A stretch of 64,000 nt of DNA from Ignavibacteria bacterium (lineage in GTDB: Bacteria > Bacteroidota > Ignavibacteria > Kapaibacteriales > Kapaibacteriaceae): contig CANHFG010000001.1 in assembly GCA_947459875.1 (NCBI GenBank), forward strand, positions 43,624 to 107,623, given 5' to 3'. The notes beneath the pieces were generated by a model that saw nothing but the letters and a program-made list of their open reading frames with translations, was not told where the DNA came from and searched no databases. The position numbers and the translations under genes are program-made. Of this stretch, positions 3,149 through 64,000 are shown piece after piece; the stretch's first letter is position 1, and each line of letters begins with the position of its first letter.

Positions 3149-3952
3149 ATGTACAGCGTACGACTAGAAAACTTCGAGGGTCCACTTGATCTCCTGCTGT
3201 TCTTCATCAAGAGGGACGAGCTTGACATCTACGACATTCCGATCGCATCGATCACTCAGGAATTCCTCGATTACGTGAAGGTGCTCGAAATTCTTGATCT
3301 GGAGCTCGCCGGCGAGTTCGTCGTGATGGCTTCCATGCTCGTGCAGATCAAGGCACAAATGCTCTTGCCACGACAGGAAAAGTCCGGCAATGCGCTCGGT
3401 GAGATCGACGACGAGGATCCTCGTGCAGAACTGGTGCGCCGGCTTCTGGAGTACAAGCGCTTCCGTGAGGCCTCCGAGTCGATGATGATCTCGGCCGAGA
3501 ATCAGCGCTATGTTCTCTACAGGCAGATCTTCGAGGCTGAAGAGATCCACGCAACAGAGTCGGGTGCCTATCGCAACGCAACGCTGTTCGACCTGCTAAA
3601 GGCCCTCAAGAGAGCCATCGATAAAGCGCCGGATCAGGATGACCCGCACGTGGTGACGCGCTTTCCGATCACGGTCGAAGAGAAGGCCACCGAGATCATG
3701 CATGTGCTTCGTTCATCGACATCGACGTCGCTGTTTCGTCTTGTCCAGGGCCTTACGCGCCTGCACATTGTTGTGACCTTTCTGGCGCTTCTGGAGCTGG
3801 CCAAGAACCAGCTCATTCTGGTGCGCCAGGATGACCGGCACGATGACATTGAAATTGTTGAACGTAAGAATGACGAATCGGACGAAGTCGATGCCACCAC
3901 GAACACTGAAGCATCGGATTCTCCCGACCCTGAAGAGGAAATCGAATCATGA
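3149..3952 (+). CDS. scpA: Segregation and condensation protein A (ScpA)
   Basis: MYSVRLENFEGPLDLLLFFIKRDELDIYDIPIASITQEFL is a typical ScpA N-terminus. The in-frame ATG at 3149 follows the alr stop; the ORF-track N-extension from 2924 overlaps alr and is rejected. Confidence 0.85.
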   Translation: MYSVRLENFEGPLDLLLFFIKRDELDIYDIPIASITQEFLDYVKVLEILDLELAGEFVVMASMLVQIKAQMLLPRQEKSGNALGEIDDEDPRAELVRRLLEYKRFREASESMMISAENQRYVLYRQIFEAEEIHATESGAYRNATLFDLLKALKRAIDKAPDQDDPHVVTRFPITVEEKATEIMHVLRSSTSTSLFRLVQGLTRLHIVVTFLALLELAKNQLILVRQDDRHDDIEIVERKNDESDEVDATTNTEASDSPDPEEEIES

Positions 3953-10788: not shown

Positions 10789-14453
<3,665 letters not shown>

Positions 14454-15068: not shown

Positions 15069-15285
15069 TGCTAATTCCGTCCCCCCGCTTCACCGTGTGC
15101 AGAAAATTTGTTTGACTAATTCGCCCAAAATCTGAATATTGAGGGACGCTGAATGGGGCGGAGCGCATTGTTGCACATGTAACTAAGTGCATCCAGCAAT
15201 GTTGTTACGTCTCTTCATCGCCGAGAAGGCTGTTCAAAGTGAAAACCAAACACACATACTTCATCACAGTTTCATCGAGGTTTGC

Positions 15286-18200
15286 ATGAGCCGCAGACTG
15301 CTATTCCTTGTTCTCATGACGGGGCTTGTGAGCGTTTCGCTCGCTATGGCTGCCGACGAAAAGGATGGCGAAGACGTGTTGCGCAAGAGCGGACAGCGTA
15401 CGCCGGTGGCGTCCTATCCGCAGCCGTTCACGGCCACTGGGCCGAACGCGCGCACGAATCCAGCCATCTCCACGGGGTATTACTTCGTGGACTCGGACGA
15501 CGAGGCACCGGATTTCTGGCGCCCAGATCCATCACAGTTTGTCGACACACTGACCGAGCCCGGCACGTGGAGGCGAATCCTCTCGGGTGCAAAGCAGCTG
15601 CCGACGGCTTACTGGACGGATCCGACGCAAAACATTTATGGCGGTTGGGCATTTTTCCGGAACCCCGGTGATGTGCGCGACTCAACCGACAATGCGTTTG
15701 CCGGCCCGATCTCGATCGGCTTCCCGTTCTTCTTCAACGGCGTGCGTCAGGACTCATTCTATGTGTCGACGAACGGTCTGATCGCCCTGTCGAATCGCCG
15801 TTATTTCTACACGATCGATCAGTTCGGTTACCCTGTTGCTCGCCAAACGCTGGAAGTACGCCCAGGCGTGTTCTCGGCGTATGACCCGATGTCAGACGAC
15901 ACGCGTTCGCGAGCCGGTAATGGCATGACGGATGCAACCCTCGATAACTGGGGCTTCAACAATGTCGCTTGCGGCGGCAACCCTACTAGCCCTACGGCCG
16001 GTATTCGCGCGACAACCAACCGTATGATGGACGGCAATAGCATTGCTGCCAACTGGGGAAGCACACTTCCGCAACTCATCGCTCCGTCGTGGGATGACCT
16101 TCAAGTTTCGGTGTATAACCCCAACGATAACGCTGTTGATGATTTCTCGCGCGTATACTACAAGCGCTCGCCATCGAACGACAAGCTCGTTATCTACTAC
16201 GTGAACCTCACACCTATCGGTGCCAAGACAGCCCGTTCCGGTGGTGGACCTCAGTACAATGTGACGTTTGCAGCCAACAATCGCCCCGGCCTTGGTGAGC
16301 ACCTTCGCTGGTCGCTTCAAGTGACGCTGAATCGTAACGACAGTTCTGTTACGATCCAGTACGAGCGATTCTCGGGTCTTGCACCGCGCACGGCGATTTC
16401 TCCGTACGCTGCTACCGTCTGGATGCGTTGTAATTCAACGGTCGGTGTTACTGGTCCGGCTCGCCGTCTGAACTGGAACGGTTTCCCATCGGTGATGCCA
16501 GCGATCACAGCGCTGGACTTCGACACACCGAAGTACATGCAGAGCACAGAGTATCTTTACAATGTCGACGTTGACCCACAAGGTGGTGTGCGTGCTATCA
16601 GCTCGCGTAACGACGACAACACGGTTCCGAAGGACTTCCTGGCCATTAAGTTCAAGCAGTTCCGCAACGTTCTTCGCGTTATCAACGTGTCGTATCGTGT
16701 GCGTCAGCAGAACAACAATGCCAACCTCGCGTTCTCGGTGATTGTTCCTCCAGCGCAGGCCAACAACTACGAACTGCTTGCTGGTGAGGATCGCCTCGGC
16801 GCCATCCAGCCAGTGGCCATTGTTCAGAGCCTGACCAATGACATTCAAGGTCCGCAGGGCGTGAACTATGTTCCTCAGGGAACGAACTTCCGCGTGCGTT
16901 TCCGTATCGTCAATGAGGCAACAGGCAAGATCGTTTACAACACATCGCGTGCTGTGACGGATGCTGCACTTCGCGACACGAACATCTCGCAGGTGTTCCG
17001 TTGCGATATCAACGGCAACAATCAGCCGTATCAGCCTGCCGGCACGTTCGTACTCCCGTACGAGTTTATCAAGGTGATCTTCCCTCCATTCGAGCCGAAC
17101 CCGTTCATCGACGATCAGATCGGCCGTCTCCTGACGACGGTTATTGCCGAACCAAAGGACTCGATCAATCAGCCAATTGGCGATCAGTGGCCGTTTGACG
17201 ATACGACCAGCATTCGCATCTTCTCGATGCGCCGTCTGACGTCGTTCTCGGACGACGTCAACGAGTACCACCTCATCGGTGGTGCCGCTATGCCTTCGGT
17301 TCTCAAGTGGGTTAACATTGAGTCAGAAGTTGTTGATGGTGACGAGGTCACCAACAACCCACCGCCACCGCGGGGCGAATACGCTGCTGCCAACTCAGAC
17401 ATCTTCCGTCTGAAGTCACCAGTGATTCGAATGAATCGTCTCAACCTTGCCAACGTTGACATTCCTGTGATTGGCCAATACGGCGGTGACGAGCTTCGTT
17501 CCTTCCCGGTCAACCTCGTTCGTCGCAAGCGCGCTGTTCTTTCGATCTCCTATCAGCGTTCCGGTAAGCTCACGAACATCGGTCGTGGCTTCTCTGACAA
17601 CCGTCTGATCGGACCTGAGCACCGCGTTAACATGCTGGCCGTGAACGGTTTCACGCCTGGTTTCCGTAATCCTGACCGTCTGCTGGTCGAGTTCGCTCGC
17701 CCGTCAAATGACGGTATCACGGGCATTACGAACATCCAGAACTGGATCCTTGATTACATGGGCCGCGCGACACAGTATCTCCAGCCGTTCCAGGTCTGGG
17801 GTGGTGGTGGCTTTGCCCGTGGTTTTGACATCGCGGACTATAACCTGCAGCTGACGAACACCACGACGCCACCACTCGGTGGTCTGCGCGAGGACCTGTT
17901 CGATGATGGTAAGGATGCCGAGTATTACAAGGTCACGATTCCAATTCCTGACACGGTACTCCGCTGGGTCAACGAAGGCGCCCGTAACTTCCGCTTCCGC
18001 CTACGTGCCAGCTGCGTGATGAATTCGCTTCCTCCGGCTCCATCGGACGACGAAGACAACTTCTACGTTGACAACGTGAAGCTTCTCTTCCCGGACGAAG
18101 TCACGGACATCGAGTTCAGCAACATCCAGCTTATCTGGCCTTACACGATGGCACCAGCTTCGCAGGCCACGCGAGTGCCGATCCGTGTGAAGCTGTCGAA

Positions 18201-20013
18201 CAACACGAACATTGCCGCTCCGGCATTCTCGGTTAAGCTCTGGATCAAGCCAGATGGAAACGAATCACAGCAGATCTACTGCCGTTCGATCACGGTTCCT
18301 ACGCTCGCCGGAAACCGCGAAGTGATCCTTCCGTTCCCAGACGCAAACTTCCGCACGACGACGCCTGGTAATTACAAGATCACGGGTCGCATCTTCTTCC
18401 CTGGCAATGACCTTGATACTCTGAACGATTCGACGTTCACGATGTTCCGCATGACGTTTGGCCCTGCGTTTGCCTACGAAACCAACCCAGCGAATCCAGC
18501 GAACGACGTTCCGAAGATTCAGTTCTCGGGCGTAACTGGTAAGGGTCTGAACCACGGTGGATTCTCAGCTGGTGCTAACGGTTCAACCTGGCAGTCACTG
18601 CTGACGGGTCCTAACCAGCAGTACACGGCGGGTTCAACGTGGGGTACCTTCCCAGCGCCGCTTGCTGGTTCGCAGATGTATGGTGCTGATGCCGGTAACT
18701 CTTCAGGTCAGCTGGCAATGCGCTTTACACTTTACTCTCAGGACACACTTGCTGGTTACCAGGCTTTCTGGGCAGAACTCAACCAGGACGTTCTGAACAT
18801 CTCGTTCTCTCTCTATCGTGATCAGGGCGGTGTTCCAGGTGACGAGCGTATCGCTAACTCTACAATCCTGCGTCGCCGTGGTGAAGACGAAACGGGCGCA
18901 TTTACCGAGCCTCAGTTCGGTAAGTATGTCACGTATCTGCTCGCTACACCAGTAGTTATCCCACCGGGTGAATACTGGGCTTCGGTTGCTCAGATGGGTA
19001 CGGAAGGCTACGAACTTGGTGCCTCGGAAACACGTATGGGTATGGTGACGACGCTATACTCGGACGTTCCTGTGTTCGGTATCGGTAACCGCTCGCTTCT
19101 TATCGACAAGAACTTCCGCGTGCGCAATCGTGCCGGATCGCTTCTGAACGATAACCGCTTCGCGTATGAAATGACACGCTTCAGCGGTGACTGGGTTCCA
19201 TTCACGCCAACGATCGGTAACCCTGGTTATCCGCATCTTGACGCTATGGGTGGAAGCCTTGGTTATGCCACGTTCACACGTGGTTCATGGATCCCGCTGA
19301 TCCGTCCATTCTTCGGAAATCGGTCGTTCTCAAATCCTCCACTGTTTATTGACTGTGTGGAAAACCCTGTCGAACTGTCCTTCTTTGATGCAAAGGGACG
19401 TTCTGCTGGTGTGGACCTCTTCTGGGAAACAGCGTCGGAAAAGAACAACGTCGGCTTCCATGTCGAGCGCCGCGCCGTCAAGGAAGTACACAACCTTACG
19501 ACGGGCAAGGCTTCGTTCACCTGCGTTGACAACACGACAGATGCAAACAATCCTTGGAAGAACGTTGGTTTTGTTGCTGGATCGGGCAACTCAAATACGA
19601 CGTTGAACTACAAGTTCTTTGATGCTGATGTCACGACGGGAGTTTCGTATCAGTACCGTCTGCGTCAGGTCGACGCTAGCGGCGCGAACAACTTCTCCAA
19701 TGTTGTCGACGTCGAGTTCGGAAACAACGCCAGTGTTGCGCTCGACAATAGCTATCCAAACCCATCGAACGGCAAGACAACGTTCACATTCACGGTTCCA
19801 CAAAGCTCACGCGTCAAGCTTCAAGTGTTTGACCTCATGGGTAATGTTGTCAAGAATGTTTACGACAACGTCGTCGCCGGTCAGTCAGTAGCATACGCTG
19901 TTGAGTGGGATGGTCGTGGCGAAGATGGCGTCGATGTCGCAAGCGGCTCGTACATGTACAAGCTCACCGTTGGTGAGACCATCCTGTCGAAGACGCTGAC
20001 GATCGTTCGCTAA
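15286..20013 (+). CDS. Giant secreted protein of unknown function with a T9SS C-terminal sorting domain (paralog A, ~1575 aa)
   Basis: Signal peptide MSRRLLFLVLMTGLVSVSLAMA. C-terminus ...SYPNPSNGKTTFTFTVP...KLTVGETILSKTLTIVR has the Por/T9SS CTD pattern. No catalytic motif recognised. Codon usage is enriched in GGT/CGT/GTT/GCT. Confidence 0.85.
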   Translation: MSRRLLFLVLMTGLVSVSLAMAADEKDGEDVLRKSGQRTPVASYPQPFTATGPNARTNPAISTGYYFVDSDDEAPDFWRPDPSQFVDTLTEPGTWRRILSGAKQLPTAYWTDPTQNIYGGWAFFRNPGDVRDSTDNAFAGPISIGFPFFFNGVRQDSFYVSTNGLIALSNRRYFYTIDQFGYPVARQTLEVRPGVFSAYDPMSDDTRSRAGNGMTDATLDNWGFNNVACGGNPTSPTAGIRATTNRMMDGNSIAANWGSTLPQLIAPSWDDLQVSVYNPNDNAVDDFSRVYYKRSPSNDKLVIYYVNLTPIGAKTARSGGGPQYNVTFAANNRPGLGEHLRWSLQVTLNRNDSSVTIQYERFSGLAPRTAISPYAATVWMRCNSTVGVTGPARRLNWNGFPSVMPAITALDFDTPKYMQSTEYLYNVDVDPQGGVRAISSRNDDNTVPKDFLAIKFKQFRNVLRVINVSYRVRQQNNNANLAFSVIVPPAQANNYELLAGEDRLGAIQPVAIVQSLTNDIQGPQGVNYVPQGTNFRVRFRIVNEATGKIVYNTSRAVTDAALRDTNISQVFRCDINGNNQPYQPAGTFVLPYEFIKVIFPPFEPNPFIDDQIGRLLTTVIAEPKDSINQPIGDQWPFDDTTSIRIFSMRRLTSFSDDVNEYHLIGGAAMPSVLKWVNIESEVVDGDEVTNNPPPPRGEYAAANSDIFRLKSPVIRMNRLNLANVDIPVIGQYGGDELRSFPVNLVRRKRAVLSISYQRSGKLTNIGRGFSDNRLIGPEHRVNMLAVNGFTPGFRNPDRLLVEFARPSNDGITGITNIQNWILDYMGRATQYLQPFQVWGGGGFARGFDIADYNLQLTNTTTPPLGGLREDLFDDGKDAEYYKVTIPIPDTVLRWVNEGARNFRFRLRASCVMNSLPPAPSDDEDNFYVDNVKLLFPDEVTDIEFSNIQLIWPYTMAPASQATRVPIRVKLSNNTNIAAPAFSVKLWIKPDGNESQQIYCRSITVPTLAGNREVILPFPDANFRTTTPGNYKITGRIFFPGNDLDTLNDSTFTMFRMTFGPAFAYETNPANPANDVPKIQFSGVTGKGLNHGGFSAGANGSTWQSLLTGPNQQYTAGSTWGTFPAPLAGSQMYGADAGNSSGQLAMRFTLYSQDTLAGYQAFWAELNQDVLNISFSLYRDQGGVPGDERIANSTILRRRGEDETGAFTEPQFGKYVTYLLATPVVIPPGEYWASVAQMGTEGYELGASETRMGMVTTLYSDVPVFGIGNRSLLIDKNFRVRNRAGSLLNDNRFAYEMTRFSGDWVPFTPTIGNPGYPHLDAMGGSLGYATFTRGSWIPLIRPFFGNRSFSNPPLFIDCVENPVELSFFDAKGRSAGVDLFWETASEKNNVGFHVERRAVKEVHNLTTGKASFTCVDNTTDANNPWKNVGFVAGSGNSNTTLNYKFFDADVTTGVSYQYRLRQVDASGANNFSNVVDVEFGNNASVALDNSYPNPSNGKTTFTFTVPQSSRVKLQVFDLMGNVVKNVYDNVVAGQSVAYAVEWDGRGEDGVDVASGSYMYKLTVGETILSKTLTIVR

Positions 20014-20025
20014 GCGTTTCCTGAC

Positions 20026-20066
20026 GGAAATTCCAAAGCCCCCGACGTTCTGCGTCGGGGGCTTTT
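20026..20066 (+). terminator. Rho-independent terminator after giant gene A
   Basis: GCCCCCGACG-ttctg-CGTCGGGGGC perfect 10-bp stem followed by TTTTCTTTTTCT. Confidence 0.8.
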
Positions 20067-20090
20067 CTTTTTCTCCTGATATTCGCAGAT

Positions 20091-21065
20091 ATGAATGCTC
20101 GCCCCCTGCCCCAGGATGTTGCCGAAGCATTGCAATTGCAGCGCAATGCCTTGAATCTGCTTGAAGAGGAGATCAACGAAGAGTTTGACCGTGCCGTGGA
20201 TGCTCTTATGAATGCCGGTGGTATTGTTGCCACTGGAGTAGGGAAGTCCGGCTTTGTCGCTCGCAAATTCGCGGCATCGCTTGCCAGTCTTGGACTCCAG
20301 GCTTCGTTCATGCATAGCGCCGATGCACTTCATGGCGACCTGGGTGTTGTGCGGCAGGGAACGTCGGTGGTGATGTTCTCCAAGAGCGGAGAGACGGCGG
20401 AGCTCGTCAGTCTCTTGGACGCGCTGAAGTCCGAGGGCGTGACATTGATCTCGGTGACCTCACGTCGGGAAACAACCCTCTCCAATAGGGCGCACATACG
20501 CCTCGTTGCGCCAATCGACCGTGAGTATGATCGGATGAATATTCTGCCGACGGCAAGTACGACTACGTCATTGATCGTTGCCGACCTGCTCGTGATGTCC
20601 ATCGCTCACCGCCGGCCGGAATCAATGGATGTGCTAGCGCGCACGCATCCACACGGTTCGATCGGATCTCTGCTAGGTCAGCGGGTGCAAGATCACATGC
20701 ATTCCGGGGCATCGCTGCCTTCCATAGTCTCAGACGCGAAGTTGGACAGTGCCGTACACGAACTTGACCGTCATGCCTTAGGCATCGTTTGCGTTGTTCG
20801 GGACGGCCTGCTCCTGCGAGGTATCCTTACCGATGGAGATGTGAGACGGCTCGTCGAGCGAGGTGTTGATTTCGCCTCGGTGACTGTCGATAGCGTAATG
20901 ACTGCCGCGCCGACGACGGTTCCCTCTTCTGCCTCGTTGCATGAGGCGCTTATGCTCATGGAGTCACCCCAGCGCGCCATCGGCGTGCTCCCGGTTGTCA
21001 ATGGTTCCGAGCTTGTTGGCGTCATCCGACTGCACGATGTCGTCCGCGCTCAGATGGCAGGGTAG
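20091..21065 (+). CDS. kpsF: KpsF/GutQ-family arabinose-5-phosphate isomerase (SIS plus tandem CBS domains)
   Basis: GVGKSGFVARKFAASLASLG SIS motif and C-terminal CBS pair, 324 aa. Confidence 0.85.
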   Translation: MNARPLPQDVAEALQLQRNALNLLEEEINEEFDRAVDALMNAGGIVATGVGKSGFVARKFAASLASLGLQASFMHSADALHGDLGVVRQGTSVVMFSKSGETAELVSLLDALKSEGVTLISVTSRRETTLSNRAHIRLVAPIDREYDRMNILPTASTTTSLIVADLLVMSIAHRRPESMDVLARTHPHGSIGSLLGQRVQDHMHSGASLPSIVSDAKLDSAVHELDRHALGIVCVVRDGLLLRGILTDGDVRRLVERGVDFASVTVDSVMTAAPTTVPSSASLHEALMLMESPQRAIGVLPVVNGSELVGVIRLHDVVRAQMAG

Positions 21066-21067
21066 GA
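20968..21067 (+). repeat. Direct repeat copy 1 (the native 3' end of kpsF); its partner is at 25774..25873
   Basis: About 93 of 95 nt are identical to 25779..25873 (gcgccatcggcgtgctcc...cagatggcagggtaggag). Confidence 0.9.
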
Positions 21068-21160
21068 GGCGCAAGTGTAACATTATTGCCTATGTTTAGT
21101 TGTTAGCAGCAGGGCCATAGTAACCTGCGATGTATGATAACTGTTTTATGCGAGGACACT

Positions 21161-24100
21161 ATGAAACAGTCCGCCGTTGTCTATCTCGTAGCATTGTGTT
21201 CTTATATCAACACCGTTACTGCGCAGGAGAAGCAGAACGATGAAGCCATTGCCCAGCGACGAAGTCACACACATGCAGCAGGCTCGACGTATCCGCAGCC
21301 TTTTGTCGGGTCAGGTGCCAACAATCGTGAGGCCGTGGCTGTTTCATCAGGGTATTACTTCGTCGATTCGGACGAAGCCATATCAGACCCTTGGAAGCCC
21401 TCGGCAAATGAGTTTGAGGATACGCTTAACGACCGAGGTTCCTGGAAACGAATCGTTTCGGGACCAAATCAATACGATGCTTCATTTTGGTCTGATCAGA
21501 GACGAAATGCATATGGAGGCATGGCGTTTTTCCGCAATCCGGGCGACCTGAAGGATTCAACAGATGATGCCTTTGCCGGACCTATTGCCATTGGGTTCCC
21601 ATTCAGTTTCAACGGCGTTCGGCAGGATTCCTTCTATGTCTCCACCAATGGCCTGATTGCTTTTTCGAACAGACGCTATCACTATCGTACTGACGTGAAT
21701 GGTGCCCTTCTTTCACGGGAGCTTCGTCTTGCCAGCACAGGTGTTCTTTCTGCTTACGATTCACAGTCCGATGATCCGCGCCATCGCAGTGGGGACGGAA
21801 TGTCAGATGCCACAGACGACTCGTGGGGTTACACGGCCGTAGCATGTGCAGGCTCACCATCGAGCCCGAAAGCAGGAATACGAACAAAGCAGAATCTCAG
21901 GCTCGACAGCAATGGACTCAGTGCCGTATGGGGATCAATCCTCCCACAGGTAGTCGCTCCGTCGTGGGATGACTTGCAGGTTTCTGTCGTGAATGGGGCT
22001 GATCTGAGCGTTGATGACTTTTCCCGCGTGTATTACAAGCGTATTCCGAACAGTGACCGAATCGTGATTTACTTTGTGAATCTCACGCCGATTGGTTTGA
22101 AACGAGCTCGTATCGGTAACCAGCCCATCTCCGAGGTCGCCTTTGCTGCTAACAATCGGCCGGGGTTTGGTGAACATTATCGGTTTTCTGTCCAGGTGAC
22201 ACTGAACGGGGCCGACAGCTCTGTGACAGTCCAGTATGATCGTTTTGCAGGAACAGCCCCGAGACTCTCAGCCACCTCATATCCTGCACATGTCTGGATG
22301 CGATGCAACTCAACCGTAGGGGTGATCGGTGCGGCACGGCGTCTCGACTGGGCAGGATTCCCTTCATCAGTACCGGCCTTATCGGTGCTTGATTATTTGG
22401 TTCCGAAGTACGTACAGAGCACTGTGTATCTACACAACATCGATACCGATGCCACCTCTGCCGTGACGCCTTCAGGAGCATCGCCGCTTGGCCGTGATTT
22501 TCCATCGGACCGGCTAGCTGTGCGATTTGCGCAGCATCGTAATATGGTTCGTGCAGTCAGTGTTTCTTACCGGGTCCGCTCCCAACAGGCAGGCTCGAGC
22601 CTTGCCTACTCTACACTTGTGCCTTCCGGGTCCGTCGATGGCTATGAGGTTCTGGCCGGCGACGAACGCCTCGGTCCGTTACAACCCGTTGCGCTCGTAC
22701 AGAGCCTTTCAAATGACATTCAGGGACCGGCTGGCGTGAATTATCAGCGCCAGGGTATACAGATGCGTGTGCGATGCCGTATCCTGAACGCCTCGTCCGG
22801 TGACCTCGTCTACGACGTCTCGAAGGTTGTTACAGACGCGACACTTCGCGACACGAACATCTCTCAGACTTTTCGCGCTAACGCTGATGGCACGAATAGA
22901 CCATACGAGCCGTCAGGCCGAGCCGTTCTGCCATATGAGTACGTCAAGGTCGTGTTCCCAGCATTTGAACCCAATCCCCTAAACGCAAAGCATGTAGGTA
23001 CCCTCTTAACGAGGGTTTCTGTAGAGGCTCTTACCAGCGAAAGTGCGCCTATTGTTGACAGGTGGCCTTTTGACGACACTATTGCGGCGAAGCTGCATGC
23101 TCTCGTCCGACTGTCGACGTTAGCAGAGACCGGTGACGGCTATCACCTTCTCGATTCAGTGGCCATTCCATCACCGCTTCGTTGGGTGAATATCGGCGCT
23201 GAAGTAGTCGATGGTGATCGAACTACCTACCTAGCCCCACCGCCGATTGGCACAAGTAGATGTGCAAATCGTTCAGAATTTGTGTTGAACTCACCAGTCA
23301 TTCGCATGAACCGCGTACATCATGACGGCTCTGAAATCCCGAAGCCCGGTCAGTATGGCGGTGACGAGCTGAGGTCGTTTCCGATAGACCTTCTTGGAAA
23401 GAAAGGCGCAGTGTTATCGATCTCGTACCATCGCACGGGCAAAGGTGCGAAGACCGATAGGGGCTTTAGTGACCTGCGTCTGATAGGACCAGAACATCGC
23501 GTTGCCATGCTGACGTCTTCCGGTGAAATGAAAACCTACCGCGAGCCCGATAAACTTCTTGTAGAGTTTGCCAGGCCTTCAGACGATAGCGTTACCGGGA
23601 TCACCAACGTACAGCAGTGGGTTCTTGACTACCAAGGCCGACGTGCAGAGTACATGCAACCATTTCAGATCTGGGGAGGGGGCGGGAATGCCCGTGGATT
23701 TGACTCCCAGGACTACAATCGCCAGCTCTCGAGCGACCCCGTGTCGGGTCGAACGGGATTGATGCCAGATCTGTACGATGAAGGTAAAGACATTGAGTTT
23801 CGGAAGCTTTTCATTCAAATTCCTGATACGGTGTTTAGGTGGTCGGCGCAAGGGGCGCGCAACTTCCGCTTTCGTCTTCGAACACATTGCCTCAATCACG
23901 GGATTGCTGGTGGTCCCGTGGATGATAGTGACGACTTCTTCATCGACAATGTTAAGGTGCTGTATACGCAGGAGATCCCCGATATAGAGATGAGCTCGAT
24001 TCGGTTGCATCAACCCTATACCATGGCCCCCCCTACTCAACTAGGAAGCGTTCCTGTTCGATTCCAACTTTCGAATCTGAGCACTGTAGTCTCTCCGTCG

Positions 24101-25744
24101 TTTTCCGTAGCCGTGCAGATTACTCGTGACCCCGATGGCTCAGATCTTGATCGGATTGGTTGCGTCTATTTCCGCTCGATAACAATTCCTACTCTTCGAG
24201 CCATGTCAAGTGTCATACTTCCGTCTCCCGATGCCAGATTCGATGATTTGCCACCAGGGGCGTACACGATTTCCGCCAAGCTGTTCTTTTCCGATAGTGA
24301 TGCTGAGTCAGCAAATGACTCCACATGCACGCGAGTTGTCATTAATCATGGTAGCGTTCTGGCGTATGAGTACGATGCCGACAGCGCGATCAATCGCGTT
24401 CCGCTGCCTCAGTTCTCTGGTATCGCTGGCAAGGGGCTCAATGCTCCCGGCAATAGCATTGCAGCGTGCTTTACCATCGTTGCGAGCGATTCGATCCTCG
24501 GCTATCAGATGCTATGGGGAGAATTGAACAGCAATCCCGACCCGGTTGAGATCAGCCTCAAGATGGAGACAGGAGAACAGATCCTGGTTGATGTGCCCGG
24601 CTCCGCGATCGTAAGACTCCGCGGCATGGATGATCTCGTACCGGGAAGTAGCCCACAGTTCGGACGAAACATCACCTACAAGCTGCCGAAGCCGTTAAAG
24701 CTTAACAGAGGTCGGTATTGGATCAGTGTCCGTCAGCTAGCGGAAAGGGGCATTGAGCTCGGAGCATCGGCTGACCGCATGGGAATGGTGACAACGATGG
24801 TAACCGAAGCGGGTTCGGGCAAGGACAGCTGTCTTTCGCTCTATGCAGACAGAAACCTTCGTCGACGTCTGCGAAGCGGGACTATGATTAATGACCAGCT
24901 GTTTGCAAATCTGAGGTCGAGTCCGAGTGGTGCTGTTGATTGGTTTGCGCCAACCGGCGGTACACCACTGTTGCCGCATCTGGACATCAAGGGAACAGTG
25001 AGAGGTTTTGAGACATTTACTCAGGGGTCGTGGATTCCCATGATACGGCCGTACTTTGGACCACGCCTGCAGCGTTACTCGTGGTCGTGTTTCGTGCCAG
25101 TCGTCCTCTCAGCCTTCGACGCTCGCCGCCGAGGCGCAGCCGTGGATCTCTTCTGGCAAACGGAATCCGAGCTGAACAATGCCGGATTCCTCATCGACCG
25201 TCGCCCAACGGATAGTGCAACTATTCTGGATGTTCGTGCTCGTGGTCTGTCTTGCGCTGATCACTACCAGAGCAAGACGCGTCCATGGAGCGAAATTGGT
25301 TTTGTCTCCGGCAAAGGCACATCTGCGCAGCAAGCGGACTACAGCTTTACGGATGTGAGCGCGTCAGTCGATAGCGCATTTGAGTATCGACTCCGGCAGA
25401 TTGAGGCGGGTTCGGGAGTTGCATACTCTGGCGTTGTTTCCGTCCCGAGGGGCAACGATGGTGATGTTGCAATGGACGAGCCTCACCCCAATCCGTCGTC
25501 AGGAAGCATCGTTCTGTCATTCAAATGCCCGAATCGGTCCCTCGTGCGCTTAGAAATCATCGATGCATTAGGCCGGCCTGTGATTCTGCTTTACGATGAT
25601 GTCGTAGAGGGAGTGTCTCAACGATACGTTTTGGGCTGGGATGGAAGATCCAATAATGGCGCCGAGGTGCCAAGCGGAGCATACTTCTGCAAGCTGACGG
25701 CTGGGGGCACTACTGTGTCGAAGGTTATCACCATCACCAGATAG
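21161..25744 (+). CDS. Giant secreted protein of unknown function with a T9SS C-terminal sorting domain (paralog B, ~1527 aa)
   Basis: Signal peptide MKQSAVVYLVALCSYINTVTAQ. Collinear blocks shared with paralog A include GYYFVDSD, AFFRNPGD, AFAGPI-IGFPF-FNGVRQDSFYVSTNGLIA, QYGGDELRSFP, QPFQ-WGGGG-ARGFD, ARNFRFRLR and GASE-RMGMVTT. The CTD is ...HPNPSSGSIVLSFKCP...KLTAGGTTVSKVITITR. Confidence 0.85.
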   Translation: MKQSAVVYLVALCSYINTVTAQEKQNDEAIAQRRSHTHAAGSTYPQPFVGSGANNREAVAVSSGYYFVDSDEAISDPWKPSANEFEDTLNDRGSWKRIVSGPNQYDASFWSDQRRNAYGGMAFFRNPGDLKDSTDDAFAGPIAIGFPFSFNGVRQDSFYVSTNGLIAFSNRRYHYRTDVNGALLSRELRLASTGVLSAYDSQSDDPRHRSGDGMSDATDDSWGYTAVACAGSPSSPKAGIRTKQNLRLDSNGLSAVWGSILPQVVAPSWDDLQVSVVNGADLSVDDFSRVYYKRIPNSDRIVIYFVNLTPIGLKRARIGNQPISEVAFAANNRPGFGEHYRFSVQVTLNGADSSVTVQYDRFAGTAPRLSATSYPAHVWMRCNSTVGVIGAARRLDWAGFPSSVPALSVLDYLVPKYVQSTVYLHNIDTDATSAVTPSGASPLGRDFPSDRLAVRFAQHRNMVRAVSVSYRVRSQQAGSSLAYSTLVPSGSVDGYEVLAGDERLGPLQPVALVQSLSNDIQGPAGVNYQRQGIQMRVRCRILNASSGDLVYDVSKVVTDATLRDTNISQTFRANADGTNRPYEPSGRAVLPYEYVKVVFPAFEPNPLNAKHVGTLLTRVSVEALTSESAPIVDRWPFDDTIAAKLHALVRLSTLAETGDGYHLLDSVAIPSPLRWVNIGAEVVDGDRTTYLAPPPIGTSRCANRSEFVLNSPVIRMNRVHHDGSEIPKPGQYGGDELRSFPIDLLGKKGAVLSISYHRTGKGAKTDRGFSDLRLIGPEHRVAMLTSSGEMKTYREPDKLLVEFARPSDDSVTGITNVQQWVLDYQGRRAEYMQPFQIWGGGGNARGFDSQDYNRQLSSDPVSGRTGLMPDLYDEGKDIEFRKLFIQIPDTVFRWSAQGARNFRFRLRTHCLNHGIAGGPVDDSDDFFIDNVKVLYTQEIPDIEMSSIRLHQPYTMAPPTQLGSVPVRFQLSNLSTVVSPSFSVAVQITRDPDGSDLDRIGCVYFRSITIPTLRAMSSVILPSPDARFDDLPPGAYTISAKLFFSDSDAESANDSTCTRVVINHGSVLAYEYDADSAINRVPLPQFSGIAGKGLNAPGNSIAACFTIVASDSILGYQMLWGELNSNPDPVEISLKMETGEQILVDVPGSAIVRLRGMDDLVPGSSPQFGRNITYKLPKPLKLNRGRYWISVRQLAERGIELGASADRMGMVTTMVTEAGSGKDSCLSLYADRNLRRRLRSGTMINDQLFANLRSSPSGAVDWFAPTGGTPLLPHLDIKGTVRGFETFTQGSWIPMIRPYFGPRLQRYSWSCFVPVVLSAFDARRRGAAVDLFWQTESELNNAGFLIDRRPTDSATILDVRARGLSCADHYQSKTRPWSEIGFVSGKGTSAQQADYSFTDVSASVDSAFEYRLRQIEAGSGVAYSGVVSVPRGNDGDVAMDEPHPNPSSGSIVLSFKCPNRSLVRLEIIDALGRPVILLYDDVVEGVSQRYVLGWDGRSNNGAEVPSGAYFCKLTAGGTTVSKVITITR

Positions 25745-25773
25745 TAACCTGAAGTTGATGGCACCATCTGCTG

Positions 25774-25873
25774 CCACCGCGCCATCGGCGTGCTCCGGGT
25801 TGTCAATGGTTCAGAGCTTGTTGGCGTCATCCGACTGCACGATGTCGTCCGCGCTCAGATGGCAGGGTAGGAG
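25774..25873 (+). repeat. Direct repeat copy 2: an orphan fragment of the kpsF 3' end
   Basis: Near-identical to 20968..21067 and starts within 30 nt of the giant gene B stop. The antisense ORFs 20771..21025 and 25618..25830 have near-identical translations (MTPTSSEPLTT...). Confidence 0.9.
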
Positions 25874-25886
25874 CAGAACGAGCCGA

Positions 25887-26927
25887 CTAGCGGATTGACC
25901 GCGGCGGCGTCTTTGTGATCGTTTGTTCCTGCTGACGCGGCCGCTTTTTCGGCGATGCAGGCTGCTGACGAGACCGTGCCTTGAGCTTGTCGCGCTTTTC
26001 GCGGGCAAGGCGCTGGTTTTCCTGGCGTCGCACAATACGGATAGAGTCGCGGCGCTGCTGCTCTCGGATGGAATCCCGACGGGCACGCTCAGGGTCAGCC
26101 GGTGCGGTGACCATCTTTGTGCTGGTGTTCGATGCGATCACTTCCGTGCGGGTGATCACGAGCTCGCGCAACACTTCGCCCCTTTTGCCATAGCGTGGAA
26201 GGGGCTGCCCATCACGAGAAAACTGTATCGCACCGGCGTTGAAGATATTGCTGACCGTGAAGCGATTCATCGCGCTCCATCGGTGCTCGATCTCCGGCAT
26301 CATCGTGATCTTCTGATAGCGTGTCCCATCCATGGTGATGGTCAGCTCTGCGGTGTCGGATGATACCGCTGAAAGGACCAGGCTGTCTTCCACGGCGGCA
26401 CCGGTGACGTCAACGATCTCTTCAGGTACATCATTCGGCGAGCCACTTCCCGAGCGCGAGATCAGAAACCAGGCCATGCATATGAGGACAAGCAGACCTA
26501 TGGAGGCAAACAAAATCGTTCTCGGCGTGAAACGGCTACTGCCGGCTTTGGCGCGTGACTGGATCGTTCGGAGCGTCTCGATCAGCGCTGTCAGAGGGTC
26601 TGACGAATCAGAGCTGCGTTGATCCTTTGATGTTGATGGTGCAGCCGATGCGCCGCTGCGCTGCTGTGAAAACGATGGCATCGAGGAGTCGGAATCTGCG
26701 TCAAGACACTGACTGATGAGACGGTTGATCTCATTCGGAGCGATACCGAGTTCCGCGGCGATTGTGCGGATGAACGAGCGAACGTAAACGGCAGGCAGAA
26801 CGTTATAGGAGGCCTTCTCGATGGCCTGGATGTACGGCTCGCGTATCTTCGTTCTTTCTGCAAGATCGAAGGTCGATAGTCCGCGTCGAACCCGTTCGTG
26901 GGCAAGCCGTTGAGAGAGTTGATCCAT
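25887..26927 (-). CDS. rodZ: RodZ-like protein (N-terminal HTH, one TM helix, DUF4115-like domain) with an extra Arg/Lys-rich C-terminal tail
   Basis: MDQLSQRLAHERVRRGLSTFDLAERTKIREPYIQAIEKASYNVLPAVYVRSFIRTIAAELGI is an XRE/RodZ HTH. TM helix ILFASIGLLVLICMAWFLI. The C-terminal region has a ...NAGAIQFSRDGQPLPRYGKRGEV pattern. The start is taken at the internal ATG (MDQLS). Confidence 0.7.
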   Translation of the reverse strand: MDQLSQRLAHERVRRGLSTFDLAERTKIREPYIQAIEKASYNVLPAVYVRSFIRTIAAELGIAPNEINRLISQCLDADSDSSMPSFSQQRSGASAAPSTSKDQRSSDSSDPLTALIETLRTIQSRAKAGSSRFTPRTILFASIGLLVLICMAWFLISRSGSGSPNDVPEEIVDVTGAAVEDSLVLSAVSSDTAELTITMDGTRYQKITMMPEIEHRWSAMNRFTVSNIFNAGAIQFSRDGQPLPRYGKRGEVLRELVITRTEVIASNTSTKMVTAPADPERARRDSIREQQRRDSIRIVRRQENQRLAREKRDKLKARSRQQPASPKKRPRQQEQTITKTPPRSIR

Positions 26928-27015
26928 GGCCCGTAAATGGATCTTCGTGTGAGATTTCGTGCGACACAAATATCATGCAAAAGAGCGCACTCCAACAGCA
27001 TAAAATTGTGGACAA

Positions 27016-27591
27016 ATGACAATGTCGTACCCCGAGCCCTGGATCGTCCTGCAGCATGGAGCCTACGTGGCCTTTGCCTTTAGCGTGTTGCTCTTCGGCG
27101 CACTCGCATTTCGGCAGATCCTGGACAACCTGGAGCTTCGACGCCGGCTCAGCGGCGAGGATCTCATGCTACTCTACAGTGCTCCGGGAGTGCTGCTTTC
27201 GCTGGCCGGTATCGGGGCCACAGTCATCGTTGGGCTGATCTGTTACAACATTGAACCACCCACGGTGTTCCGCTACGCCCTGCCGCTGGTAGGGGGCGTG
27301 CAGATGGCTCAGATCGCGCTGCGCCTTCACTTTCAGCGCACACGCCTGCGGACGCTTGCTCTCGTCATCCGGCCGATCGTGCGTTCTGGGCCGATCGTGA
27401 TCCCTTACGCAGAGATGACCAGCATCGAGCTCATCAGCACCATGCTTTGGACCACCGTGCGGGTAACGCAAGGTCAGGGCGAGGCCGTAGCCTTTCGTAT
27501 TTTCCCGTTCCAAAGGGCTCGACTCGAGCAACGGCTTCGGCTTGTCAGCTCGGCTACGATCCAATCCAATCACACCGCCGGCATCAGATAA
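27016..27591 (+). CDS. Hypothetical membrane protein (two TM helices plus a small soluble domain)
   Basis: Hydrophobic segments YVAFAFSVLLFGALAF and VLLSLAGIGATVIVGLICY. No known motif. Confidence 0.5.
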   Translation: MTMSYPEPWIVLQHGAYVAFAFSVLLFGALAFRQILDNLELRRRLSGEDLMLLYSAPGVLLSLAGIGATVIVGLICYNIEPPTVFRYALPLVGGVQMAQIALRLHFQRTRLRTLALVIRPIVRSGPIVIPYAEMTSIELISTMLWTTVRVTQGQGEAVAFRIFPFQRARLEQRLRLVSSATIQSNHTAGIR

Positions 27592-62388: not shown

Positions 62389-63705
62389 ATGATGGCAATT
62401 GAGTTGGATGTATCATCTCTGACGTCCGATGCACGCATTCGCGTGGTCGGCGTAGGCGGCGGTGGCGGCAATGCAGTCCGCACCATGATCGCCCGTGGAC
62501 TCGATGGAGTCGAGTTCGTTGCAGCAAACACAGACCGTCAGGCTCTTTTGAGCAATCCGGCTGGCATCAAGCTTCAGCTTGGTAAGGATGTGACGCGTGG
62601 TCTTGGAGCCGGAGCCGATCCCAATAGGGGGCGGATGGCTGTCGAGGAAAGCCTTGACGACGTGCGCGAAGCCCTTGAAGGCAGTGACATGATCTTCGTG
62701 ACCGCTGGTATGGGCGGAGGCACGGGGACCGGGGCTGCGCCGGTGATCGCACGTATTGGTCGCGAGATCGGTGCCCTCGTCGTGGGCATCGTGACCAAGC
62801 CGTTCAACTATGAATCCAAAAGGCGCATGGCCGTTGCCGAAAACGGCATCAAGGACCTGCGCGAACATGTAGATGCGCTGATCGTCATTCCCAATCAGCG
62901 GATCCTGACGGTCGTGGACAGGGACGTAACGTTTGCCAATGCGCTCATGATGGTCGACAACGTTCTGTACAACGCCACGAAGGGCATTGCGGATATCATC
63001 TCCGGTGTCGGGTATATGAACGTCGACTTTGCCGACGTCCGCACGGTCATGTCCGGCATGGGCGATGCGCTCATGGGGATCGGCCGCGCCAGTGGCGAGC
63101 ACCGTGCCATTGAGGCAGCACAGAACGCATTGAATTCTCCGATCCTTGAGGGCATGTCGATCTTCGGTGCGCAGGGACTTCTTGTCAATGTGACAGGGGG
63201 CTCGGGCATGACAATGTTCGAGGTCAGCGAAGCTGTCGCCGCCATCGAACAGGCCGCCGGCGATGAGGTGAACCTCATCCACGGCGTGGTGATCGACGAA
63301 CGTATGGAAGACGAGATCGCCATCACAGTTGTGGCCACGGGCTTCCACCGTCAACACGAAGAAAAGAAAGCCACGGTTGTTCCTGTGGCAGCGCCGGTGG
63401 CCGGGCCTATCATCGAGATCGTCCGCCAGCAGCCAGAACGCGATGTGGTAGCGGAAACTCCCGCACCATCGCCAGCTCCAACTGCTCCTGCCGCATCTGA
63501 AATTGATGTCAACGACATCAACGTTCCGACCTATCTGCGACGTCAACGCGAACGTGAGCAGGACCATCGTCAGACCGGTATGCCACATTCCGAGCCCCCT
63601 TCATCGGGCTCCGTTCCTGTAGCCGCTCCGGATCCATCTCAACCGCAGATGCGCCGCGCTGCCGCCGGCAGCCAACCGGCGTTTCTGCGGAAAATCATGG
63701 ATTGA
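62389..63705 (+). CDS. ftsZ: Cell division protein FtsZ
   Basis: Tubulin signature GGGTGTG (GMGGGTGTGAAPVIA), NTDRQAL, and a C-terminal conserved peptide (DVNDINVPTYLRRQ). Confidence 0.95.
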   Translation: MMAIELDVSSLTSDARIRVVGVGGGGGNAVRTMIARGLDGVEFVAANTDRQALLSNPAGIKLQLGKDVTRGLGAGADPNRGRMAVEESLDDVREALEGSDMIFVTAGMGGGTGTGAAPVIARIGREIGALVVGIVTKPFNYESKRRMAVAENGIKDLREHVDALIVIPNQRILTVVDRDVTFANALMMVDNVLYNATKGIADIISGVGYMNVDFADVRTVMSGMGDALMGIGRASGEHRAIEAAQNALNSPILEGMSIFGAQGLLVNVTGGSGMTMFEVSEAVAAIEQAAGDEVNLIHGVVIDERMEDEIAITVVATGFHRQHEEKKATVVPVAAPVAGPIIEIVRQQPERDVVAETPAPSPAPTAPAASEIDVNDINVPTYLRRQREREQDHRQTGMPHSEPPSSGSVPVAAPDPSQPQMRRAAAGSQPAFLRKIMD

Positions 63706-63712
63706 GAAGAGA

Positions 63713-63895
63713 ATTACGGGAGTACGGAAGTACGGAAGTACGGAAGTACGGAATTACGGAAGTACGGAAGTACCGAATTACGGAAGTACGGAAGTACCGA
63801 ATTACGGAAGTACGGAAGTACCGAAGTACGGAAGTACGGAATTACGGAAGTACGGAAGTACCGAATTACGGAAGTACGGAATTACCGAATTACGG
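63713..63895. repeat. Tandem array of about 23 copies of the 8-bp unit AGTACGGA (variants ATTACGGA and AGTACCGA) with a 24-bp higher-order period
   Basis: Direct reading gives attacggg, agtacgga x4, attacgga, then repeated agtacgga-agtaccga-attacgga triplets. It begins 8 nt after the ftsZ stop. The ORF 63702..63962 (ITEVRKYR repeats) is its translation artefact. Confidence 0.9.
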
Positions 63896-64000
63896 AATGA
63901 CGCAGTGTTTTTGGGGTGAGACGAAGTCTCGTCCGTGCTATTCTGTGCGCTACCGGGACTGATGCTCTTTAACGCGTTGCAAAAGAAGCATGCCGGTGAG

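Follow-up and report, generated by a model that had tools for sequence, protein, structure and literature searches.

Why does a second, non-coding copy of the end of kpsF lie behind a giant gene, and what does it say about how that gene arrived? The question arises in a 64-kb stretch of bacterial DNA, called the window here, in which two giant paralogs, A and B, lie on either side of kpsF. A sequence-only reading had placed a kpsF-end copy at 25774..25873 and had seen in it the mark of either a duplication junction or an insertion of B by recombination. The parts of the locus, in order, are these:

15187..20013, plus strand: giant paralog A, 1608 aa, with a T9SS type A sorting domain (Pfam and NCBIfam C-terminal domain)
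20035..20065, plus strand: terminator-like hairpin after A, a 14-bp stem with 9 GC pairs, followed by a T run
20091..21065, plus strand: kpsF (KpsF/GutQ arabinose-5-phosphate isomerase), 324 aa, intact, with SIS and CBS domains
20969..21068, plus strand: repeat copy 1, the kpsF 3' end, with the same boundaries in all B+ loci
21069..21133, plus strand: 65-nt spacer ahead of B, forming the left end of the insert, with no counterpart in B- alleles
21117..21127, plus strand: 11-nt direct repeat ATAGTAACCTG, the copy upstream of B, 7 nt before the start codon
21134..25744, plus strand: giant paralog B, 1536 aa, the only gene of the insert, with a T9SS type A sorting domain
25741..25751, plus strand: second copy of the 11-nt direct repeat ATAGTAACCTG, overlapping the B stop codon
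25745..25773, plus strand: 29-nt spacer (TAA and 26 nt), the right end of the insert, absent from B- alleles
25774..25873, plus strand: repeat copy 2 (the orphan), which matches copy 1 at 97/100 positions and adjoins the ancestral downstream sequence
25874..25886, no strand: ancestral 13-nt spacer between kpsF and the RodZ-like gene, matching the spacer after kpsF elsewhere
25887..26969, minus strand: convergent RodZ-like HTH_25 gene (PF13413, E = 1.5e-16)

The product of kpsF scores 211 bits with TIGR00393 against a cut-off of 203.7, as a member of that family should, and the gene is equally long in alleles with B (B+) and without it (B-). B scores 25.9 with TIGR04183 (cut-off 23) over residues 1452-1532, which makes it a predicted type A cargo. 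Beyond the C-terminal sorting domain no further Pfam or NCBIfam domain was found in A or B, and a search of B against the PDB gave no sequence match. The contrast drawn earlier between the ends of the two giant genes is borne out: A is followed by the hairpin and T run at 20035..20065, and B by no terminator; none was found between kpsF and B either. The sole Rfam match in 19800..27200 is to suhB/mmgR at 19991-20077; at 21.3 bits (gathering 41) and E = 0.64 it is sub-threshold and, lying on A's hairpin, most likely just the terminator.

The copy at 25774..25873 is real. It aligns without gaps over 100 nt to 20969..21068, at an offset of 4805, and consists of 94 nt from the very end of the kpsF coding sequence, the TAG stop codon and a further 3 nt, GAG. 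In the sequence-only reading the partner had been set one base off (20968..21067) and the identity had been put at about 93 of 95; the exact figure is 97/100. The identity breaks off sharply at both edges. The pair is the sole dispersed repeat of high identity and at least 30 nt in the 64-kb window, where the one other substantial repeat is an octanucleotide array at the far end; a chance match is therefore excluded. The two copies bracket B. The orphan begins 29 nt past the B stop, ends 13 nt before the end of the convergent RodZ-like gene, and shares the reading frame of B, from which TAG TAA separates it; it is annotated as a gene in none of the related contigs.

Two other repeats in the window deserve mention on their own account. 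The 11-nt sequence ATAGTAACCTG has just two occurrences in the 64 kb, even with one mismatch allowed (0.21 expected). Upstream of B it is intact in the window and in one related contig (L001) but changed in loci of the type of another (L003); the pair may be the footprint of an older event, or chance. The octanucleotide array (GAAGTACG) is a tandem of 23.4 units with 86% matches at 63711-63897, starting 6 nt past the end of the open reading frame 62389..63705.

The locus was compared with 30 related loci from uncultivated Kapabacteria. Genome and metagenome scans gave three close loci; the majority of alleles were retrieved by looking up the exact proteins of kpsF clusters. Every complete B+ locus has two repeat copies with identical boundaries, and alignment of eight contigs from independent assemblies (L001, L003, L008-L011, L013 and the window) places the copies at both ends of B, as first noticed. 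Could the orphan nonetheless be a duplicated contig edge or a collapsed repeat? Metagenomic assemblies may break or mis-join at 100-bp repeats; one contig (L016) ends precisely at the last base of the repeat, and another (L031) closes on itself inside it. However, the eight contigs come from different projects and assemblers and include contigs of 395 kb and 516 kb and a k=141 assembly, and the copies in the window are distinguishable from each other, with three differing positions. The probability of an artefact, which the earlier reading had itself raised, is negligible.

Relatives that lack B indicate which of the two copies stands at the old site. In one genome whose kpsF is 85% identical (L002), the genes run metH-purN-A-kpsF and the RodZ-like gene comes immediately next. 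When five sequences were aligned, what follows kpsF in L002 proved to be what follows the orphan in the window and in L001 (CAGAACGAGCCGACTAGCGG...), and nothing in L002 corresponds to the stretch behind the kpsF-attached copy (GCGCAAGTGTAACATT...). The orphan thus retains the ancestral right neighbour and the kpsF-attached copy the ancestral left neighbour. From this pattern it follows that the novelty is a 4705-bp insert (21069..25773) together with one extra 100-mer. B is likewise absent from the outgroups L022 (kpsF 85%), L023 (84%) and a P0125 contig (69%), and from L024-L030 (kpsF 61-63% identical). In all B- loci the RodZ-like gene is the immediate neighbour of kpsF, and the 13-nt spacer of the window matches that of L002 at 12 of 13 nt and those of conspecific B- alleles exactly. 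On this comparison the ancestral order is kpsF and then, 13-16 nt on, the convergent RodZ-like gene. A is a conserved resident gene outside the insert; it is present in every related locus examined and adjoins kpsF in all Kapabacteria-like genomes examined. An A-type cargo (about 1600 aa, predicted T9SS) lies between purN and kpsF in every related genome examined.

The slot between kpsF and the RodZ-like gene is also used elsewhere. In L006 and L007 it holds a B-type gene of 1520-1527 aa (B'), whose stop lies 14-15 nt from that of the RodZ-like gene. No flanking repeats of at least 14 nt were found in flanking position around B' in these two loci, and no kpsF remnant follows B' in the B' loci. 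Comparison of L007 (4184-8969) with L029 (7148-7214), whose kpsF genes are 92% identical, reveals a second, independent presence/absence of B' in the same slot. Flanking repeats are absent here too, the left flank is 93.4% and the right 99.1% identical, and the kpsF C-terminus is replaced (VVRAHMVS* in L007 vs VVRTQITATQLRR* in L029). When L007 is set against both L029 and L030, which lack B', the left breakpoint falls within the last 19-34 nt of kpsF and the right one exactly at the RodZ-like stop. Repeats are therefore not required for turnover at the slot, as the repeat-free gain or loss of B' indicates, and from the breakpoints the conserved kpsF tail seems to be the usual left anchor.

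B-less alleles, expected from the sequence-only reading as excision products, were found in the same species (L012, L017-L021) as well as in outgroups (L002, L022, L023, P0125). The conspecific contigs were picked because they encode the exact kpsF proteins of the two closest clusters, P0122 and P0121. Contigs with the first protein (98% identical) carry B in L008-L011 and L013-L015 and lack it in L012; those with the second (99% identical) are all B- (L017-L021). Within the species, B+ alleles (L003, L008-L011, L013-L015) and B- alleles (L012, L017-L021) have the same kpsF protein or proteins 99% identical. Four of the B- alleles (L012, L017-L019) align without gaps over 6.1 kb to L003 once 4805 bp, that is, one repeat and the insert, have been removed from it in silico. 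In their flanks, L019 and L003 are 0.0% divergent in the 1300 bp to the left and 0.1% in the 1200 bp to the right; for L012 and L003 the two figures are 0.1% and 0.2%. A 1-nt indel lies about 950 nt left of the repeat in the flank comparison.

Most B- haplotypes have private variants inside the repeat, namely G at column 4 and A at column 13. The B- contigs come from Logan (k=31) as well as from ENA scaffolds, and a sample with B+ alleles only would be expected to branch a k=31 graph at the repeat, as L016 does. The B- alleles are therefore real and not collapsed assemblies. By their sequence they are either the product of recombination between the repeats or the pre-insertion site. One B+ contig, L009 (GCA_046306255), has six transversions within 75 bp (11239-11313; B 3196-3270), which create a premature stop, so that B is called as two proteins of 1070 and 411 aa; the cluster is either a local sequence error or a sign that this B is pseudogenised.

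The two repeat copies do not diverge independently. They are identical at 100 of 100 positions within L001, and likewise within L003. Between L001 and L003 there are three differences (columns 29, 61 and 73), each common to both copies. With L002 as reference, column 61 is derived in both copies of the window/L003 type and column 73 in both copies of L001. Independent identical substitutions are implausible, so the copies must exchange sequence by gene conversion. The copies in the window differ from each other by three singletons, and the cassette repeat of L031 differs from that of L001 at two positions, which indicates that homogenisation is frequent but not instantaneous.

The insert and its repeats also have a history different from that of the flanks. 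The window compares with L001 as follows:

A: 90.3% nt identity, dS 0.48
kpsF: 87.7% nt identity upstream of the repeat, dS 0.37 for the whole gene
B: 98.0% nt identity, dS 0.047
RodZ-like gene: 89.7% nt identity, dS 0.39

The left 65-nt spacer is 63/65 identical in this pair. The density of mismatches falls at most 18 bp from the left edge of copy 1 and rises again within about 60 bp of the end of copy 2. The same profile can be followed along L003 and L001:

left flank, -300..-101: 49/200 differences
left flank, -100..-1: 10/100 differences
each repeat copy: 3/100 differences
spacer upstream of B: 3/61 differences
end of B and spacer: 9/300 differences
right flank, +1..+100: 6/100 differences
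right flank, +101..+300: 17/200 differences

The low divergence of the cassette relative to its flanks suggests that, long after the two lineages had split, one of them acquired the repeat-B-repeat unit or had its own unit replaced, with the reservation that the low-divergence tract of L001 is known from one metagenome-assembled contig, where a strain switch at the 100-bp repeat could mimic cassette transfer. An independent Logan contig, L031, has the L001-type cassette at 99.94% identity and carries no flanks. The dN/dS of B is 0.19-0.23, which marks it as a constrained, functional gene, though far less constrained than A, whose value is 0.035 and whose protein is 83-97% identical across genera. 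This range for A is found where kpsF is 63% and the RodZ-like protein 53-58% identical (L002, L006, L007, L022-L030).

Between the window and L003, dS is 0.38 for A (L003 5096-9922), 0.083 for kpsF and 0.017 for B, and the right flank is 0.2% different; the A proteins are about 97% identical. A single species thus harbours deeply diverged A alleles that segregate or recombine. The B- strains, for their part, have in common a divergent block in A's 3' half. A sharp breakpoint inside the left repeat was considered for the window and L003 and rejected, the differences being patchy.

Of the two origins proposed in the sequence-only reading, recombination-mediated insertion of B is upheld by B-less alleles that equal B+ alleles minus exactly one repeat and the insert, and the duplication junction is not. 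A and B are only 49% identical in amino acid sequence whereas the repeats are 97-100% identical, and B belongs to a clade apart from A; the repeat is therefore not a relic of an A-to-B duplication. In a neighbour-joining tree the window's B is the long-branched sister of the B' clade, outside the A clade. A, B and B' are about 50% identical to each other in all pairings, the local A is no nearer to B than other A proteins are, and the B-type clade is patchily distributed. A tandem duplication should have given paralogs that are each other's closest relatives and repeats and genes of one age, and neither is found. A more elaborate version would make the orphan the relic of a tandem duplication of the whole A-kpsF pair, in which the second kpsF lost its 5' 875 nt and its tail was held similar by conversion. 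A and B are indeed paralogs in the same orientation with kpsF sequence after each, and gene conversion between the tails is demonstrable. This version is nevertheless very improbable: besides the 49% identity and the clustering of B with the B' of other genera and not with the local A, the nearest outgroups have no B and keep the kpsF tail beside the RodZ-like gene, the B' loci have no kpsF remnant after B', and from the window to L001 A has diverged about ten times as much as B.

We consider it probable that a 4705-bp segment with a single gene was inserted by recombination at the kpsF 3' end, and that conversion, loss and exchange between lineages came later. The donor would have been a relative with a B-type gene already in place behind kpsF, as in L006 and L007, and its kpsF 3' end would have come along as homology. 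A search for donors found all relatives of B outside its clade to be at most 50% identical, so the structure of the donor is inferred. Integration could have followed either of two routes, presumably with RecA-type enzymes: Campbell-type integration, in which a circularised fragment enters by one crossover, or homology-facilitated illegitimate recombination, in which one end pairs homologously and the other is joined illegitimately. Both would duplicate the homologous 100 nt and keep kpsF intact. The repeat would end 3 nt past the kpsF stop because the homology between donor and recipient ends there, and its other edge would be the illegitimate junction, at which any microhomology is unreadable since the donor sequence was not found. 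Gene conversion would afterwards keep the copies alike, and homologous recombination between them would delete one repeat and the insert (4805 bp), giving B-less alleles; these may thus be secondary deletions, or else empty sites that were retained. The repeat-B-repeat unit would also have moved between diverged lineages. The repeat, the empty sites, the exact indel, the concerted evolution of the copies and the low divergence of the cassette are observed. As in other duplication-flanked insertions, the repeats copy one contiguous target segment, which is single in the empty-site alleles, and the empty-site allele is exact.

Could a dedicated element have done the same? The insert contains B and the 65- and 29-nt spacers only, with no integrase, excisionase or other mobility gene, and its ends show neither terminal inverted repeats nor microhomology, the best inverted match being 6 nt. 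A transposon or insertion sequence was rejected for want of a transposase and of terminal inverted repeats, and because the duplication is 100 bp, not 2-14 bp; a duplication so far in excess of target-site duplications disfavours any transposase origin. A phage or plasmid vehicle for B was rejected as well, since IMG/VR contigs hold no relative of B and PLSDB gave no match. Site-specific integration, with an att site in the kpsF 3' end, B as the cargo of a minimal element and an integrase acting in trans, would account for direct repeats of a housekeeping-gene 3' end around the insert, for the exact empty site, for the identical boundaries of all B+ genomes, and for a cassette far less diverged than its flanks, in a tract that stops at the repeats. 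But one ancestral event predicts identical boundaries equally well, viral contigs and plasmids contained nothing related, the 100-mer and its surroundings show neither inverted repeats nor an arm-type structure, and homologous recombination over 100 bp explains all the observations. Of the marks of an integrase island, the recombinase gene is missing from the insert; the border repeats and exact empty site are present but not specific to that family. We regard site-specific integration as quite unlikely, and so too its corollary that the element brought a replacement 3' end for its target gene. Somewhat less doubtful, though still unlikely, is that repeat-B-repeat is a mobile cassette free of any integrase, with the kpsF 3' end as a portable homology arm: a 4.8-kb circle would pop out through the repeats and re-enter kpsF by a single crossover, in the same or a diverged lineage. 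The contig L031 (Logan SRR6483167_451, 4834 bp), reported in two samples, consists of the B cassette and one repeat, and its 30-nt terminal self-overlap closes it into a 4804-bp cycle. It could be a k=31 de Bruijn loop from genomic repeats, an excised circle or a tandem array. If such a cassette exists, it would explain why dS is 0.047 instead of about 0.4, why the repeats are identical and why L031 closes on itself.

Insertion by recombination leaves room for a further reading, an add-on to it and not an alternative, in which the orphan is kept for its function: it would provide the RodZ-like transcript with its 3' UTR or terminator region, or the mRNA of B with a 3' element. With a spacer of just 13-16 nt, the RodZ-like transcript of B- alleles must end inside the kpsF tail, and the orphan preserves that context; the copies are 97-100% conserved, and no terminator follows B. 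However, the folding energy is unremarkable on the two strands (z = -0.07 and -1.59), the minus strand of the orphan has no terminator-like site, and gene conversion without selection explains the covariation of the copies. A structured RNA in the repeat was rejected, given these ordinary z-scores and the lack of any Rfam match near the repeat in the range searched, 19800..27200. On balance a function of the orphan is improbable.

How does the locus compare with known systems? Circular molecules that integrate by one crossover in Escherichia coli leave the insert between duplications of 109-950 bp (PMC3240628). Campbell integration and the kpsF locus have in common direct repeats that copy one chromosomal segment, an intact target and exact restoration by recombination between the repeats, but here the event is natural and chromosomal, involves no vector or selectable marker, and the circle is putative. 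At T6SS/Rhs loci, homology-anchored insertion is proposed to displace old 3' ends (PMC5361080). The likeness to such C-terminal displacement in Rhs, CDI and T6SS systems lies in the upstream anchor, the new downstream module and the orphaned old 3' end (PMC5361080); the orphan tail at kpsF indeed sits between B and the ancestral downstream neighbour. Unlike in those systems, however, the old and new tails here are 97-100% identical, so that no diversity of kpsF C-termini arises, and an entire gene of its own forms the cargo. Nor does the orphan decay or act as a silent store of toxin or immunity sequences; conversion holds it identical to the other copy.

Flexible genomic islets and presence/absence polymorphisms of surface-protein genes, upheld by homologous recombination of the conserved genes on either side, offer another parallel, a fast-evolving giant surface or secreted gene in a fixed slot, patchily distributed and exchanged between lineages, but at kpsF the cassette brings its own duplicated homology, which leads to precise and frequent loss. 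Integrative elements that insert into gene 3' ends bring a replacement 3' end with them, as do tRNA-gene islands and, in the icd gene of E. coli, e14 and phage 21. They too have a duplicated 3' end at both borders, an intact target and an exact empty site; here, by contrast, there is no mobility gene and the repeat identity extends across the whole 100 nt. The event at kpsF is a new, well-documented case of a known kind, not a new mechanism.

The locus is a natural example of the 3' end of a housekeeping gene being duplicated upon capture of an accessory gene. For annotation, it accounts for a puzzling non-coding fragment of kpsF and warns that assemblies may break or mis-join at this point. 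The 100-bp repeats, homogenised by conversion, make B precisely deletable and delimit the unit that is exchanged between lineages. B itself is a 1536-aa predicted type IX cargo, a fast-evolving paralog of the very conserved giant A. With its B+ and B- alleles at this locus, the uncultivated lineage thus offers a natural on/off polymorphism for what is probably a protein of the cell surface.
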